Positions 1,662 through 52,802 of a stretch of 64,000 nt of DNA are shown in pieces. A program made the position numbers and the translations under genes. The stretch comes from Bernardetia sp. OM2101 (GTDB lineage: Bacteria > Bacteroidota > Bacteroidia > Cytophagales > Bernardetiaceae), in contig NZ_CP170094.1 in assembly GCF_042180575.1 (NCBI RefSeq), positions 1,848,604 through 1,912,603 on the forward strand, written 5' to 3'. Each line of letters opens with the position of its first letter. Position 1 is the stretch's first letter. Under the pieces are notes generated by a model. That model was not told the DNA's origin. It saw only the letters and a program-made list of their open reading frames with translations, and searched no databases.

Positions 1662-3890
1662 ATGGAAATCACGACAACCGAAACAGCACAAAAACTTGGA
1701 CTTACAGCAGAAGAATTTACCAAAATTGAAGAAATACTCGGCAGAACTCCCAATTTTACTGAATTAAGTATTTTTTCTGTTATGTGGTCAGAACATTGTT
1801 CTTACAAAAACTCTATTGTTTGGCTCAAAACACTTCCCAAAAAATCAGATAGAATGCTCGTAGAAGCAGGAGAAGAAAATGCAGGTTTAGTAGATATTGG
1901 AGATGGTTTGGCATGTAGTTTTAAAATAGAATCGCATAATCATCCGTCTGCCTTAGAGCCGTATCAAGGAGCTGCAACAGGTGTAGGAGGAATAAATAGA
2001 GATATTTTTACGATGGGTGCAAGACCTATTGCTCAACTCAATTCACTTCGTTTTGGCAAAATTAGCTCTCCAAAAACACAATGGCTAGTTCGTGGTGTAG
2101 TCAAAGGAATTGGAGATTATGGAAATGCCTTTGGAATCCCAACAGTAGGAGGAGAGGTTTATTTTGATGAATGTTATAATGTAAATCCATTAGTAAATGC
2201 TTTTTCAGCAGGAATTGTAGAAACTGATAAAATTGCTTCTGCTATTTCGTTTGGCGTAGGAAATCCTGTTTATATTGTAGGTTCTGCAACAGGAAAAGAC
2301 GGAATTCATGGAGCTTCATTTGCCTCAAAAGACATTTCAGATGATTCGATAAAAGACCTTCCAGCCGTACAAGTAGGCGACCCTTTCCAAGAAAAATTGC
2401 TTTTAGAGGCAACTTTAGAAGCCATTGCAACAGGACATTTGATAGGAATTCAAGACATGGGAGCAGCAGGAATTACTTGCTCAACTTCCGAAATGAGTGC
2501 AAAAGGAGAACACGGAATGAAAATCTATTTGGATAAAGTTCCGACAAGACAAAAAAATATGCAGCCTTTTGAGATTCTTTTATCAGAATCACAAGAACGT
2601 ATGCTTATTGTTATTAAGAAAGGAAAAGAAGCCGAGTTACAAGCTATTTTTGATAAATGGGATTTGAATTGCGCTCAAATTGGAGTAGTTACAGACACCA
2701 AAAGACTAGAGTTTTATGTAAATGATGAATTAGTGGCTGATGTTCCTGCCGATGATTTGGTTTTGGGAGGTGGCGCACCAGTTTATAATAGAGAATATAC
2801 AGAACCTGCTTATTTTAGTGAATTCCAACAGTTTCAGATTGATGAAATAGAAGAACCAGAAGATGAAAAACTCCCTGAAATTGCTAAATTTTTAATTGGA
2901 CATCCAAATATTGCTTCTCGTCGTTGGATTTCAGAACAGTACGATTCGATGGTCGGAACGGCAAATACTTCTACAAACCAACCTTCTGATGCAGCGATTG
3001 TAAATGTAAAAGGAACAAATAAAAATATTGTTATTTCGGTAGATTGTAATTCTCGTTATGTCAATGCAGACCCAGAAAAAGGAACTATGATTGCCGTTTC
3101 AGAAGCTGCCAGAAATATTGTTTGTAGTGGTGGAGAGCCTGTTGCGATTACAAACTGCTTGAACTTTGGAAATCCATATATTCCAGAAGTATATTGGCAT
3201 TTTGTAGGAGCAATAAAAGGAATGAAAGCAGCTTGTGAAGTTTTCAAAACGCCTGTAACAGGTGGAAATGTGAGTTTTTATAATCAATCTTCGGATGAAG
3301 GTCCTGTTTTTCCTACTCCGACAATCGGAATGTTAGGTCTTTTGGAAGATATTAAGCTCAAAATGACGTTAGATTTTAAAAATGAAGGCGATATTATTTA
3401 TCAAGTTGGTAAATCAAGAAATGATATTTCTTCGTCGGAATATTTGTATTCGTATCATAAGTACAAAGCCTCTCCTGCTCCTTTTATTGACTTAGAAGAA
3501 GAATCAAAACTTCAAAAAACGATTTTAGAACTTATCAAAAACAAACTTATTGTTTCTGCTCATGACGTTTCAGATGGTGGACTTTTCGTAACACTTACAG
3601 AATCAGCAATGGCAGCCAGTAAAGATTTAGGTTTTTCTGTCAAGACGACTTCTCACAAAGTGCGTAAAGATGCTTTTTGGTTTGGAGAAAGTCAGAGTAG
3701 AGTTGTTGTTTCTGTTTCTAAAGATAAGAAAGAAGAATTTGAAGCATTACTCAAAATTCAAAATGTAGATTTTTCAGAGCTTGGAAGCGTGGTTTCTGAA
3801 AAAGTTTGTCAAGTAGATGGAACTATTTGGCTTTCAGTTGATGATGCAAAAGAAGAGTTTGAAGCTACTTTGCCGAAGTATTTGAACTAA
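1662..3890 (+). CDS. purL: Phosphoribosylformylglycinamidine synthase subunit PurL
   Basis: 742 aa. The N-terminus [19 protein letters not shown]...[13 protein letters not shown] and the AIR-synthase-like repeats are typical of small-form PurL. Confidence 0.93.
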
Positions 3891-3970
3891 ATATTTGAAC
3901 TTATTGGTTAATGATCTTTATGATGAATATAAATGAAAATTACCTTTTTTGATAAAATAATTTTGAAGTA

Positions 3971-4011
3971 AAAAGGATATGGAATTTTTTTATGATTCTG
4001 TATCCTTTTTG
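3971..4011 (+). terminator. Rho-independent terminator hairpin after purL (copy 1 of a thrice-repeated terminator sequence)
   Basis: AAAAGGATATGGAATTTTTTTATGATTCTGTATCCTTTTT: an imperfect stem with G:U pairs followed by a T-run. Confidence 0.55.
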
Positions 4012-4110
4012 TTTTATATTAATTTCTTAGATTTGTGTATTCATTGCTAGTCAAAATAATAATAAATCTAAAATTTAACAAGTGTAAGATTTACTGAAAA
4101 ATAAAAAATA

Positions 4111-4674
4111 ATGAAAAAAGTATATCTAACATCATTTTTGGCATTACTGATTACAATACTCTATTTTGGTTTTATTGTACCTTATTACCATTCTAAATAT
4201 GACTGTAATTACACTGCCCCATTGGGAACGTCTAGTATGCCTGATAAGTCTAGGATGGAATATAAATCTAATAAATTACAAGACTCTATTACCAACATAA
4301 TTCTTGCAGAAAATGAAATAATATTGGATAGTTTAATAGAAAAGAGTAAAAATCAAAGCTATACCACTACAATGCTTGTTTCATCTTTTCAAATAGAAAC
4401 AACAATAATCAGTCTTTCGAATTATATAGTGAAGGAAAGTCTAAAATTTGTTAGAAAAGACAAAAATATATCTGTATTTAAGACTGACTTCTATCTTTGT
4501 ACTGCAATTACTAAATATAATTCTTTCTATCCTTTTGGAGATCATTGTAAAATTTACACAGTAAAAATAAATGGATTAATGTACACCGAATTGAATCCTA
4601 GACTAATATTGAATGTTTATAAAGGACTTGATTTAGAATATACTGATGATAATATAGGTTTAGAAAACTATTAA
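4111..4674 (+). CDS. Hypothetical membrane-anchored protein
   Basis: 187 aa ORF with an N-terminal hydrophobic helix (LTSFLALLITILYFGFIV). It lies 10 bp upstream of the GNAT gene. Confidence 0.45.
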   Translation: MKKVYLTSFLALLITILYFGFIVPYYHSKYDCNYTAPLGTSSMPDKSRMEYKSNKLQDSITNIILAENEIILDSLIEKSKNQSYTTTMLVSSFQIETTIISLSNYIVKESLKFVRKDKNISVFKTDFYLCTAITKYNSFYPFGDHCKIYTVKINGLMYTELNPRLILNVYKGLDLEYTDDNIGLENY

Positions 4675-14370: not shown

Positions 14371-14682
14371 AGAATTGGTTATCTGACAGTTTTTGTGGAG
14401 CGTGTAACAATGAGTAGTTAAATTACAACTCATTAATAGACTTATTTGCCTTTCTGTTCCATAGGAACTTGATATTTATTGGTAGCAAAGTTAAGAAGCT
14501 AGAAACTGTATTCTGTTCCGTTAGGAACTACACATTGGTAGCATTTAGAATAGGTAGTAAAAAATGCTATACAACTCCTACGGAGTAGATGAGTTTTAAC
14601 GTTTCTATTTTTCTACCAATATAAAACTCCTAACGGAGTAAAAATCAAAATTTTACAAAAATTGTCAGATAACCAAAGAATT
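14371..14682. mobile_element. MITE-like element with 20-bp terminal inverted repeats (GGTTATCTGACAGTTTTTGT) enclosing a roughly 200-bp core of paired hairpins; copy 1
   Basis: 14373-14397 and the reverse complement of 14655-14680 match at 19 of 20 positions. The core 14456-14652 (GTTCCrTAGGAAC...ACTCCTAACGGAGT) is about 80% identical to 18853-19043. Confidence 0.6.
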
Positions 14683-18773: not shown

Positions 18774-19140
18774 TCGCTCGTGAGGACACCATAGCCGTAA
18801 GGTTAAAAATTATTTAACTTTTTAGCTTCACTGCTTTCGTTACACTTCAAGTGTTCCGTAGGAACTTTATATTGGTAGTAAATAAAAGAAAAAATTGTAT
18901 TCTGTTCCGTTAGGAACTACATATTGATAGTATTTTCAATATAAAATGCAACCAATATACAACTCCTACAGAGTAAATGAATTTTATTTTTTCTGTTTTT
19001 ATCTATCCAATATGGAACTCCTAAAGGAGTAAAAAACAAAATTCCTCAATAGCCTCACGGCTATGGTAAGGACACGAGCAACGGTCAGTTTTGCTATCTT
19101 GTGAATAACCCATCCATTGCTTGTGTCCCCACAAGCGATA
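18774..19140. repeat. Nested palindromic repeats: the hairpin GTCGCTCGTGAGGACACGAGCAACGG is split by an inserted element with terminal inverted repeats ACCATAGCCGT/ACGGCTATGGT. That insert in turn carries MITE core copy 2 (18853-19043). An additional GCTTGTGTCCCCACAAGC hairpin sits at 19114-19140.
   Basis: The left half at 18774-18803 and the right half at 19053-19088 rejoin to match the intact hairpin at 51845-51872. The core matches 14456-14652. Confidence 0.7.
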
Positions 19141-19346
19141 TATATATTACAAAACTAAAAACATTCTTTTTCGTTAAGAAAGGAATACTATTTTTGATAA
19201 ACTTTCAATAACTTTTATGAAAGTGATTTAAAAGTAGCTAAAACAAGTATAAAAATGAAATAACAATTTTTATTCTCATAAAAAATTACGATACTTGTTA
19301 GATTAAGATTTAACTGATAAATTCAAAATCTATATAAGTTAAAAAT

Positions 19347-19429
19347 CGTCGGTGGGGACACCGACAATGGCGAGGAGAGTATTACTAAGTCGCTGTTTTT
19401 TCCGTTGTCGGTGTCCCCACTGACGACAA
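19347..19429. repeat. Inverted pair of GTCGGTG-GGGA-CACCGAC type REP-like hairpins immediately upstream of hslU
   Basis: TCGTCGGTGGGGACACCGACAATGG ... CCGTTGTCGGTGTCCCCACTGACGACAA. This is the same family as the elements at 51514, 51933, 52169 and 30734. Confidence 0.7.
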
Positions 19430-19445
19430 AATTGAAAATAAATTT

Positions 19446-29731: not shown

Positions 29732-29765
29732 TGTAGGGCAAAGGCTTGCCTTTGACCTACAATGA
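29732..29765. repeat. REP hairpin (TGTAGGGCAAAGGCTTGCCTTTGACCTACAATGAT) at the 3-prime flank of the RAYT gene
   Basis: A perfect palindrome of the GTAGG-CAAAGGC type. Confidence 0.8.
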
Positions 29766-29776
29766 TTACATATATT

Positions 29777-30310
29777 TTATGGCGTAAAAAACGTATCATC
29801 TTCCCAGTTTTCTACATTGTTTTGAATGTAATTTGAAATGTGTTGATATGATTTTTCATCTCTAATAATGTGATCATTAAAACGAGCTTGCCAAGCAGAT
29901 TCTAATCCTAAACGATTTACGTGTTTGGTTACTCCAGACTTAAAACCTCCAATAATAGAGGAAATAGTATCTTTACCTTGATTTTGAAAGCGATTTTTCG
30001 TAAAACCTTCTGAGTTTAGTTCTGTCTTTTCTTCTATTATCATAGGCTTATCTATCGTAATAATTGTGTGCAAATGGTTTGGCATTATTACAAATTCTTC
30101 CAACTCCACATATGTTCTATGAATAGGGATTTGATGCCACAAAACATCAACTATAACACCCACTTTTGAGAGTTCCATTTTTTTATCTTTTATCTTACCA
30201 AAAAAGTGTTCTTTATTTTTAGTGCAAATAGTAATAAAATAAGCACCATTCCAATCATAATTCCACCATTCTGCTCGTATGATAGGCTTTCTGTAATTTT
30301 TATGTTTCAT
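29777..30310 (-). CDS. REP-associated tyrosine transposase (RAYT, IS200/IS605-like HUH Y1 transposase)
   Basis: 177 aa with the HUH motif (IMPNHLHTIITI) and a catalytic Tyr region (SYQHISNYIQNNVENW). REP hairpins flank it on both sides. Confidence 0.8.
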   Translation of the reverse strand: MKHKNYRKPIIRAEWWNYDWNGAYFITICTKNKEHFFGKIKDKKMELSKVGVIVDVLWHQIPIHRTYVELEEFVIMPNHLHTIITIDKPMIIEEKTELNSEGFTKNRFQNQGKDTISSIIGGFKSGVTKHVNRLGLESAWQARFNDHIIRDEKSYQHISNYIQNNVENWEDDTFFTP

Positions 30311-30335
30311 TTTGTTTTATTTGAATTTTTGAATT

Positions 30336-30360
30336 TGTAGGTCAAAGGCAAGCCTTTGAC
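30336..30360. repeat. REP (5-prime arm plus inner hairpin: TGTAGGTCAAAGGCAAGCCTTTGAC) at the 5-prime flank of RAYT
   Basis: An 18-bp segment CAAAGGCAAGCCTTTGAC is duplicated at 30516-30533, on the other side of the microsatellite. Confidence 0.75.
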
Positions 30361-30361
30361 G

Positions 30362-51404: not shown

Positions 51405-52652
51405 TCAAAACTCTCTGTCTTTCCATTTTACCTTTTTTGTTTTCAAAAAATAAATTCCTACTAAGAAATATAAAAATGATTCTATCAAACAGAAAAGAAA
51501 AATTTGTATTATAGTTGTCGGTAGAGACACCGACAAAGGCAAGAGTTTTAATTTTATAAAAAATGAAATAATCAGTAAAAAATTAATTATTGAAATTATA
51601 AAAATTGATAGAATGAAGTAAAAATTTCCACTCAAAATTATTCCTAGTAGTATTCCTAACAAAAAGATAATTCTGAATAAATAAGCTATCAAAATTCCTT
51701 TTTTAAGAAAATTAGAAAACTGCCAAGCTCCACAAAACCAACGATGACGCTGTAAAATCCAATCTTTTAGAGTAGGTTCTGCTTCTGTGAAAGCTAAAGA
51801 TTGAGGATTGAAAAGATGAAGGAAGAATTGATTTTTGTTTATAAGTCGCTCGTGAGGACACGAGCAACGGTGTTTTTTTTGCTTTTCTAATTGTCTGACA
51901 CTTTGAAGTGTCTGACAATTTTGTTTTTCCTGCCGTTGTTGGTGTCCCCACCAACGCCCATTTATGTGATTTTGAAAGGCTTTAAAAAGAGCTACATCTT
52001 CAGTTACTGAAAACTCAATGTTTTCATATCCTCCTATTTCTTGATACGTCTTTTTATCAAAAATGAGATTATTTCCCATTGCAGTTTGTGGAAAATGGAG
52101 TTTTGAAAAAATGGCTAAAATTCCCTGTCCAAAGACCCAGTCTATTATTTGAAAAGTAGTAAGAAATTGTTGTTGGTGTCGCTTCGTTAAAACACCAACA
52201 ACGGCATTATTTAATTTGGGAATTGTCGTTCCCATTACCATTTTTATATATTCTTTTTGATAATATTTTTTTACTAATTCTTTGAGCCAATTTTGATTTA
52301 CTAAAATATCAGCATCTAATAAAATAATGGTTTCTCCTTCTGAATGATTGATTAATTGATGAATAACATTTACTTTGCCTTTCAGATTTATTTCTTTATT
52401 TGAATTTTCTATTTTAAAATACTTAAAATTTATTTTTTGATTTTCTTGAATGAATTTGTTTCTAAATTTCTTTATAATTCCTGCACTCTCATCTATTGAA
52501 TCATCATCTCCAATCAAGATTTCTAATTCAAAATTATTGTTATTTTTTTCTGTTTTGTAAAATTCATTTATAGCTAGTTGTAAATTATCTAAGCAAGATA
52601 AAATTATTCTTTCTTCATTTCTGACGGCTACTAGAATACTTATTTTTTTCAT
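51405..52652 (-). CDS. Family 2 glycosyltransferase carrying four in-frame palindromic repeat insertions
   Basis: The GT2 motifs are ILLDAD, MGNNLIFDKKTYQEIGGYENIEFSVTED and QRHRW. The peptides AVVGVLTKRHQQQ, NGRWWGHQQRQEKQNCQTLQSVRQLEKQKKHRCSCPHERL and LPLSVSLPTT are encoded by GC-rich hairpin repeats. Confidence 0.8.
   Translation of the reverse strand: MKKISILVAVRNEERIILSCLDNLQLAINEFYKTEKNNNNFELEILIGDDDSIDESAGIIKKFRNKFIQENQKINFKYFKIENSNKEINLKGKVNVIHQLINHSEGETIILLDADILVNQNWLKELVKKYYQKEYIKMVMGTTIPKLNNAVVGVLTKRHQQQFLTTFQIIDWVFGQGILAIFSKLHFPQTAMGNNLIFDKKTYQEIGGYENIEFSVTEDVALFKAFQNHINGRWWGHQQRQEKQNCQTLQSVRQLEKQKKHRCSCPHERLINKNQFFLHLFNPQSLAFTEAEPTLKDWILQRHRWFCGAWQFSNFLKKGILIAYLFRIIFLLGILLGIILSGNFYFILSIFIISIINFLLIISFFIKLKLLPLSVSLPTTIIQIFLFCLIESFLYFLVGIYFLKTKKVKWKDREF
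51514..51539. repeat. REP-like hairpin GTTGTCGGTAGAGACACCGACAAAGG inside the GT2 coding sequence
   Basis: It belongs to the GTyGGTG...CACCrAC family, and translation runs straight through it. Confidence 0.75.
51845..51958. repeat. Cluster of three hairpin repeats inside the GT2 coding sequence: GTCGCTCGTGAGGACACGAGCAACGG, then TTGTCTGACACTTTGAAGTGTCTGACAA, then CCGTTGTTGGTGTCCCCACCAACGCC
   Basis: Each matches intergenic copies elsewhere: 18774/19053, 52731-52802, and 19347-19429. Confidence 0.8.
52169..52205. repeat. Hairpin repeat GTTGTTGGTGTCGCTTCGTTAAAACACCAACAACGGC inside the GT2 coding sequence
   Basis: It belongs to the GTTGGTG...CACCAAC family and encodes AVVGVLTKRHQQ in frame. Confidence 0.75.
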
Positions 52653-52730: not shown

Positions 52731-52802
52731 TCAGTACACCTTCAAGGTGTCAGACAATTTAGTCCAACATAGCTGTCTGACACTCTGAAGTGTCTGACAG
52801 GG
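52731..52802. repeat. Two GTCAGACA/TGTCTGACA-type hairpin repeats downstream of the GT2 gene
   Basis: CAGTACACCTTCAAGGTGTCAGACAA and GCTGTCTGACACTCTGAAGTGTCTGACAGGG are the same family as the repeat at 51891-51918. Confidence 0.7.

Follow-up and report, generated by a model that had tools for sequence, protein, structure and literature searches.

Putative REP-type hairpins translated at three sites of a GT2 glycosyltransferase gene in Bernardetia sp. OM2101

We analysed a 64,000-nucleotide stretch of Bernardetia sp. OM2101 (contig NZ_CP170094.1, positions 1,848,604 to 1,912,603; henceforth the window, with coordinates counted from its first letter), in which a gene for a GT2-family membrane glycosyltransferase (51405..52652, minus strand) carries short GC-rich palindromes within its coding sequence. 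The open reading frame (ORF) is intact, encodes 415 amino acids, and its product has an NCBI counterpart of 100% identity, which is annotated for this strain as a glycosyltransferase. The gene holds five hairpins at three sites (A, B and C, in the order of translation), which contribute 63 of the 415 residues (15%). The initial annotation, made from the sequence alone, had spoken of four members at four places; the hairpins do lie where it had placed them, the frame is preserved, and the peptides that it quoted are exact. Folded as single-stranded DNA and compared with shuffled sequences, all five hairpins had z scores of -3.3 to -6.5.

The product belongs with the processive-type GT2 enzymes by its Pfam matches (Glycos_transf_2, Glyco_trans_2_3 and Glyco_transf_21), its motifs and its predicted structure: the DxD, TED and QxxRW motifs belong to a GT-A domain, after which come transmembrane helices. 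The best Foldseek matches of the model were hyaluronan, cellulose and chitin synthases. The motifs DAD (aa 113-115), TED (aa 217-219) and QRHRW (aa 301-305) are located between the inserts, as had been noticed at the outset, and are invariant across the alignment of orthologs described below.

Four of the five hairpins, one of them a variant, share a design that we call F1. At site A (52167..52204, minus strand; aa 150-162, coding for AVVGVLTKRHQQQ) lies this variant, F3, which combines the F1 stem with a 12-nt loop; it has an 11-bp perfect stem (z = -3.3), and the covariance model of F1 (R1) scores it at 32.8 bits (E 3.4e-6). The insert at site B is a 40-aa block (aa 231-270) made of three hairpins. 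The first, F1 hairpin 'a' (51931..51956, plus strand, CCGTTGTTGGTGTCCCCACCAACG; z = -3.5, R1 40.6 bits), is read antisense as GRWWGHQQR (aa 233-241). It is followed by a hairpin of a second family, F2 (51889..51920, AATTGTCTGACACTTTGAAGTGTCTGACAATT; 15-bp stem with one mismatch, z = -6.5), coding for CQTLQSVRQL (aa 246-255), and by F1 hairpin 'b' (51845..51870, minus strand; sense strand CCGTTGCTCGTGTCCTCACGAGCGAC; z = -3.5, R1 44.4 bits), which codes for RCSCPHER (aa 261-270). Site C holds a decayed F1-type hairpin (51514..51539, minus strand; sense strand CCTTTGTCGGTGTCTCTACCGACAAC) with an 8-bp stem (z = -5.3; R1 20.1 bits, E 0.01), translated as LPLSVSLPTT (aa 371-380).

Hairpins 'a' and 'b' form an inverted doublet with the F2 hairpin nested in its spacer. 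The intergenic F1 doublets of the window consist of an inverse copy, a spacer of 31 or 29 nt and a forward copy. Because the two hairpins of site B have the same relative orientation, and because their spacer of 62 nt is the sum of the F2 hairpin (32 nt) and a further 30 nt, site B looks like a doublet of this kind, similar to the REPINs of other bacteria, with F2 lodged in its spacer. Two details of the loops are recorded here for their own sake. The 12-nt loop of most F3 copies (L001, L004, L007 and L008; L-numbers denote fetched DNA loci) contains GCGAAGC, a classic, very stable DNA mini-hairpin, and the window copy at 52167-52204 has ACGAAGC instead. The loop GGGGACAC fits the 'GGGGWSAS' motif of terminal inverted repeats beside TIRYT genes given in PMC3733652, and is offered as a lead only.

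Relatives of these hairpins are found in the intergenic DNA of the window where the initial annotation had placed them, with both F1 and F2 represented. Model R1 found nine F1-type copies, five of them intergenic. One intergenic doublet, with an inverse and a forward copy separated by a 31-nt spacer, lies at 19341..19431 (copies 19341-19372 and 19400-19431; R1 46.2 and 41.2 bits). In the second (18774..19143, also by R1) the forward copy lies at 19112-19143 and the inverse copy is split into 18774-18790 and 19066-19084; the split copy has the CTC/GAG stem of hairpin 'b', and its loop is interrupted by about 275 bp of other palindromic repeats. A degenerate copy (30733..30764, plus strand, R1 25.9 bits) sits just upstream of the likely ATG of the next gene (30777), and two F2 hairpins (52736..52800) lie just upstream of the GT2 start codon. 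Hairpin motif counts in the window exceeded those of every shuffle. The GT2 gene is itself unusually dense, with 4 of the 14 GC-rich hairpins of the window within its 1.25 kb against about 0.27 expected (Poisson P ~2e-4).

The repeats that interrupt the split F1 copy deserve separate mention. They belong to a mosaic of small palindromes of about 200 bp (GTTCCGT(T)AGGAAC twice, ACTCCTAnnGGAGT twice) which occurs twice in the window (18791-19065 and 14447-14652) and again in L004 (11211-11276). One copy occupies the F1 hairpin loop, with AGGACAC at both junctions, and the other is flanked by long-range, F2-like arms (GGTTATCTGACA / TGTCAGATAACC). The mosaic may be an element that targets hairpin loops, comparable in this to IS1397 and the REPs of E. 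coli.

The F1 design can be written as CC-RTTG-nnn-GTG-TCCY-CAC-nnn-CRAY, that is, a 10-bp stem whose foot is GTYG/CRAC and whose loop is TCCY, preceded by CC on the 5' side. We scanned 185,579 species genomes for CCRTTGnnnGTGTCCYCAC, leaving free the three middle bases of the stem and the whole 3' arm, and the matches listed comprised at least 119 stretches. Among them, 95 of 115 from Bacteroidota were fully complementary at the free positions, against 0 of 33 from other phyla. The Bacteroidota matches listed came from Cytophagales, Spirosomataceae, Mucilaginibacter, Chitinophagaceae, Saprospiraceae and others, and contained at least 14 compensatory variants of the stem. In an alignment of 68 distinct copies, 97.1% of the cells were paired, four pairs changed on both sides, and none of 500 shuffles attained the observed score. 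The complementarity, the compensatory variants and the pairing beyond that of shuffles indicate that F1 is a structured repeat across Bacteroidota and not a peculiarity of Bernardetia.

Nor is residence within genes confined to the glycosyltransferase. Of the 117 F1 copies that the fetched loci contain, about 10 are situated far inside long ORFs, and several of the hosts are clearly real genes: those for an N6 DNA methylase (L021, where the Pfam match includes the hairpin), a polyketide synthase (in a linker), an ABC permease (L073), a GNAT protein and a protein sorted by the type IX secretion system. F2, with the core TGTCTGACA, is rarer: an exact-pattern scan of a metagenome collection yielded one further GT2 ortholog (L128) and four intergenic places (L129-L132) that represent two distinct sequences. 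Rfam gave no relevant match at gathering thresholds or at relaxed E-values, and in the literature the loop sequences as such were met only as primers. A protein search with the concatenated insert peptides, aimed at unrelated proteins with these peptides, found no candidate with enough common words, and the evidence used here was taken from the DNA level instead.

Some further properties of F1 were seen in passing. At one stem position (alignment A3, columns 7 and 26) T-A in 41 copies alternates with T-G in 25, a combination whose pairing is possible on just one of the strands and which suggests that the active form is strand-specific, either single-stranded DNA or RNA. Head-to-tail tandem arrays of F1 occur in metagenome-assembled genomes (MAGs) of other Bacteroidota (L026 7705-7928, L037 1-87 and L012 4283-4405), with periods of about 39, 34 and 52 nt. 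A 545-aa membrane protein ORF (L014 1534-3171, minus strand) contains a 13-residue unit, MEGSRQSLKPEEK, about four times in tandem beside two in-frame F1 hairpins (VVVSEDTDNS and IVSGDTDNGE).

A candidate partner of F1 appears in the DNA that adjoins its copies, where two ORFs of the fetched loci encode proteins that resemble the tyrosine transposases associated with repetitive extragenic palindromic (REP) elements (RAYTs). In a Spirosomataceae MAG (L027) such a gene (3886-4416) has inverted F1 copies on either side, at 3842-3868 (about 18 nt ahead of the ATG) and at 4440-4465 (about 25 nt beyond the stop). L043 has F1 clusters to either side of its gene, at distances of about 17 nt on the upstream side and about 90 nt on the downstream side. 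The clade to which these proteins belong has more than 2,000 homologs, one of them in Bernardetia sp. ABR2-2B (L133), where the gene (3001-3540) stands between copies at 2957-2988 and 3548-3598, F1 preceding the ATG by 17 nt and an inverse F1/F3 following the stop. The inverted layout recurs in Hugenholtzia roseola (L134). Inverted F1 copies thus flank the RAYT-like gene at distances of about 20-50 nt in L027, L133 and L134, the arrangement known as a REPtron; for F1 it was not seen in the OM2101 window. The proteins are 173-179 aa long, conserve PNHIH, WQ and YIH[HYN]NP, and match NCBIfam REP_Tyr_transpos with E 1.6e-20 (73.5 bits, below the curated cut-off of 80); the match to Pfam Y1_Tnp is also below its cut-off.

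Size and motifs agree with those reported for subclass 2.6 (about 179 aa, NH[LIV]H, WQ, YIH[QN]NP; Quentin et al. 2018, PMC6006769; Bertels et al. 2017, PMC5581495, where it is group 5). TnpA-REP subclass 2.6 is described there as mostly from Bacteroidetes, with atypical flanking hairpins that do not have the GT[AG]G foot and recur in the genome (PMC6006769). F1 has its lowest stem pairs as GTYG/CRAC in place of a 5' GT[AG]G foot, and in this respect it matches these atypical hairpins. Because inverted F1 flanks this RAYT clade, and because size and motifs match the published description, F1 (with F3) is best read as the cognate REP of subclass 2.6. F1 is also a short GC-rich imperfect palindrome with many copies mostly outside genes (five of nine F1 copies in the window are intergenic, and 95 of the 115 Bacteroidota matches listed are perfect), and it is this dispersal, together with the flanking of a RAYT, that leads us to regard the F1 hairpins as REP elements.

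The window contains a REPtron of another family (29732..30537, minus strand), composed of a RAYT-like gene at 29777-30310 and GTAG-type hairpins at 29732-29761, 30337-30360 and 30514-30537. These hairpins (family F4, GTAGG[G/T]CAAAGGC..GCCTTTGAC) do have the canonical GTAG foot, and no copy of their family was found within the GT2 gene. The protein matches NCBIfam REP_Tyr_transpos with E 8.7e-15 (54.9 bits, again below the cut-off of 80) and the TnpArep structure 4er8 of the PDB with E 1e-4, and its motifs resemble those of subclass 2.4. Its best alignment to the F1-linked RAYT covers 61 residues at 36% identity. Between two of the GTAG-type hairpins, just upstream of the RAYT-like gene, we observed about 22 tandem heptamers GTTTTGT (30362-30515).

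Whether the segments are insertions was examined in a protein alignment of 22 homologs (18 from the Bernardetia clade and four distant ones, namely two Spirosoma, one Spirosomataceae MAG and one Pontibacter) and, at the codon level, in nine orthologous genes. Synteny speaks for their orthology: at several loci a gene for Leu/Phe-tRNA protein transferase stands upstream and an HSDR_N_2 gene downstream. All four distant orthologs are without any of the three segments. The Bernardetia-clade orthologs range from 347 to 415 aa, with a further metagenomic ortholog (L128) of 450 aa, and one of the 18 is free of inserts. Absence of the peptides from orthologs had been proposed as a check; it holds for the distant ones, and among close relatives the segments are polymorphic. 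At site A, OM2101 and B. litoralis have one hairpin, L004 has a tandem pair and L008 a right-arm remnant; no insert is present there in L002, L003, L005 and L006. The full set of three hairpins at site B occurs in OM2101 and B. litoralis. L002 and L007 carry two of them (one partly deleted), L003 the middle one only and L006 the first only, and the site is empty in L004, L005 and L008. The segment of site C is missing from most orthologs in the codon alignment.

At site B the F2 hairpin is present in 12 of the 18 Bernardetia-clade orthologs, and hairpin 'b' was seen solely in OM2101, in B. litoralis (decayed) and in L128. In the last (767-1057), three in-frame tandem units of 54 bp with one F2 hairpin each stand between two F1 hairpins, within a stop-free reading frame of 450 aa. 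On the ortholog tree, which is poorly resolved, the insert states are patchy, so that several gains or losses are needed. Although the peptides are kept, some of the hairpins themselves are intact and others have decayed beyond detection by the covariance model (e.g. F1b and F3 in B. litoralis are decayed), which argues against strong selection for the hairpin structure within the gene. OM2101 alone has in addition four extra codons (KFRN) after IIKK (52445-52462, aa 64-69), AT-rich and with no palindrome, which look like an ordinary indel.

The core of the gene is under purifying selection, the ratio of nonsynonymous to synonymous substitution rates (dN/dS) being 0.19-0.27 against eight orthologs over 335 ungapped codons, and the gene is not a pseudogene; a frameshifted pseudogene had been named in advance as one outcome that would overturn the initial proposal. 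For the 57 insert codons common to OM2101 and B. litoralis dN/dS is about 0.67, which fits a relaxed protein constraint. In the AlphaFold model (mean pLDDT 77), the confidence falls below 50 solely at aa 150-156 and 237-270, and site C forms the loop between the predicted helices 344-367 and 377-404. The inserts thus occupy what the model portrays as low-confidence or tolerated loops.

Taken together, we think it probable that REP-type hairpins, as non-autonomous selfish DNA, landed in three permissive loops of a functional GT2 gene and are now tolerated as translated insertions, F1 being the cognate of a subclass 2.6 RAYT. Under this account the hairpins would have inserted into the three loop regions and survived there because the copies add whole codons and carry no stop in the frame used. 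In line with this, Bernardetia F1 variants are free of stops in 5-6 of the six frames, F2 and F3 in four and the GTAG REP in two. Now presumably translated as tolerated parts of the loops, they would then have decayed, shrunk or duplicated by multiples of three, lineage by lineage. Demonstrated here are the family membership of the hairpins, the polymorphism of the insertions, the integrity of the gene and the flanking of a RAYT by F1. The RAYT would move F1 hairpins by analogy with the single-strand cleavage and joining performed by E. coli TnpA-REP and by IS200/IS605 transposases, and the insert peptides would be neutral.

Several observations weigh against this account or limit it. The window, which is the sole OM2101 sequence covered, contains no subclass 2.6 RAYT, and we know of no direct demonstration of RAYT-driven transposition for this subclass. 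F2 is tied to no transposase and few copies of it were found. The tree is star-like and does not tell whether site B goes back to a single doublet with later losses or to independent hits in succession. Filled and empty sites gave no target-site rule and no evident target-site duplication of the kind expected from MITEs (miniature transposable elements with inverted repeats), the orthologs being too diverged for exact junctions. Finally, dS is 0.23 in the 57 insert codons, a small sample, vs 0.62 in the core, and this could reflect nucleotide-level constraint or homogenisation by gene conversion instead of neutrality.

A more far-reaching version, to which we give rather little credence, is that F1 and the subclass 2.6 RAYT could constitute an ancient REP system spread over the Bacteroidota and serving as a routine source of loop insertions, and that site B could be an expandable cluster (0-3 F2 units between two F1) that alters the behaviour of the enzyme. 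F1 would routinely become coding in such a system because it is nearly stop-free in every frame, whereas only 4% of random 26-mers of the window are open in all six. That this openness is a selected property was considered and rejected, as mononucleotide shuffles were open about as often (the share of shuffles at least as open being 0.08-0.72); it comes from base composition and not from special design.

The strongest competitor of tolerated selfish insertion is that the inserts are selected, either as DNA or RNA hairpins that regulate expression or as loops rich in Cys, His and Trp (GRWWGHQQR, RCSCPHER) that serve the enzyme in some way; F2 units, numbering 0-3, would then act as a tuning device. 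At least one insert is kept in 17 of the 18 Bernardetia-clade orthologs, the insert codons have a lower dS than the core, F2 has expanded in frame in L128, and further F2 hairpins lie just upstream of the start codon. However, no insert is common to all orthologs and one ortholog does without any; hairpins decay where peptides stay (F1b and F3 in B. litoralis); the insert dN/dS is about 0.67; the model confidence of the segments is very low; and unrelated genes and intergenic DNA contain these same sequences. We thus regard selection of the inserts as unlikely.

The initial annotation had suggested a RAYT-mediated spread and pointed to the gene at 29777-30310. The first part stands as likely, since F1 flanks the subclass 2.6 clade, but the gene named is the wrong one and we rejected it as mobiliser. 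It does encode a RAYT-like protein in the same region of the genome; its own flanks, however, are of the GTAG-foot family, absent from the GT2 gene and stop-free in only two of six frames, and F1 flanks another RAYT clade in four other genomes, the two proteins being alignable over just 61 residues at 36% identity. Spread by the window RAYT is in our view very unlikely. Even less probable is a local origin of the palindromes, by replication template switching or by chance in a variable loop, with their likeness due to convergence: the sites are indel-prone loops and local tandem duplication does occur, but the hairpins are nearly identical, loop and foot included, to copies at unrelated loci and in other Bacteroidota orders, and the doublet spacing of site B matches that of intergenic doublets. 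A pseudogene in decay, or inserts produced artificially by the assembly, for which the odd peptides alone would speak, is the least likely reading given the intact and annotated ORF, the purifying selection and the same inserts in independent assemblies and metagenomes.

As for significance, the principle of in-frame insertion of REPs or of Rickettsia palindromic elements (RPEs) is already known, and the general picture of their biology is unchanged. New are the lineage of the host, an explicit and covariation-backed consensus for F1 and the number of hits crowded into a single gene; we found no literature on repeats of Bernardetia. The locus provides a compact and well-resolved case of selfish hairpin DNA apparently turned into protein, with 15% of one enzyme derived from repeats, and in the ortholog series the same three loops have gained copies, lost parts of them, let them decay or enlarged them in tandem. 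An 'atypical' and so far poorly characterised REP, that of a Bacteroidetes RAYT clade, also acquires an explicit consensus and structure, so that the pair of RAYT and F1 becomes testable in vitro and annotators can recognise such peptides.

The system to which the initial annotation had likened these inserts is that of the RPEs, in-frame palindromic repeats in genes of Rickettsia (Ogata et al. 2000, as cited in PMC10969869 and PMC3733652; in-frame MITEs are reviewed in PMC10969869). The likeness is fair, as a functional analogy. As with RPEs, the families found in the GT2 gene are also intergenic and stand in frame within functional genes, and the peptides are missing from orthologs and compatible with the fold: an in-frame palindrome in a functional gene, with these attributes, is what we observe here. 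The host is one of the Bacteroidota and not of the Alphaproteobacteria, however, and the units measure 26-38 bp compared with about 100-150 bp for RPE-1. Moreover, a candidate transposase partner can be named for F1, whereas CGTC repeats, including RPE-4 and RPE-6, are reported to have no association with transposase genes (PMC3733652).

Closer in dimensions are the intragenic REPs catalogued in many species and phyla by Di Nocera, De Gregorio and Rocco (2013, PMC3733652), where dimers code for 20-30 residues and some genes are hit twice. Together with the Bacteroidetes RAYTs and the in-frame REP insertions in RAYT genes and other genes described in PMC6006769, they show that the novelty initially implied was overstated. 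Like those GTAG and CGTC REPs, the hairpins described here are 20-40 bp long, occur as singletons or dimers wholly within ORFs and code for 8-30 residues; unlike them, F1 has neither tag, no A/T pairs at the first stem positions and no CCA tail. Membership of F1 in the CGTC superfamily, whose REPs end in CGTC and in a CCA tail and have a stem of 8-9 bp that begins with A/T pairs around a loop of 4-5 nt (PMC3733652), was rejected, because with its 10-bp stem, TCCY loop, GTYG/CRAC foot and 5' CC only the length of the loop agrees. The GT2 gene, with five units at three sites, also exceeds the two hits of some genes in that catalogue, and in the parts of its supplementary lists that were covered the sole Bacteroidetes genome is Gramella forsetii.

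The doublets recall REPINs, inverted REP pairs with a short spacer that are likely the mobile unit (Bertels and Rainey 2011, PMC3116915), in that three of them occur in the window with spacers of about 30 nt, one being intragenic. They differ from REPINs in that the two hairpins of an F1 doublet often have different stems, so that the doublet forms no single long hairpin; as a mobile unit it is a candidate. A further counterpart is the subclass 2.6 REPtron, to which the F1-linked RAYT corresponds in length, motifs, Bacteroidetes host and atypical recurring hairpins. To what the passages of PMC6006769 covered here say of it, the present analysis adds a consensus for the hairpin, the compensatory variation of its stem across the phylum and its presence inside unrelated genes.

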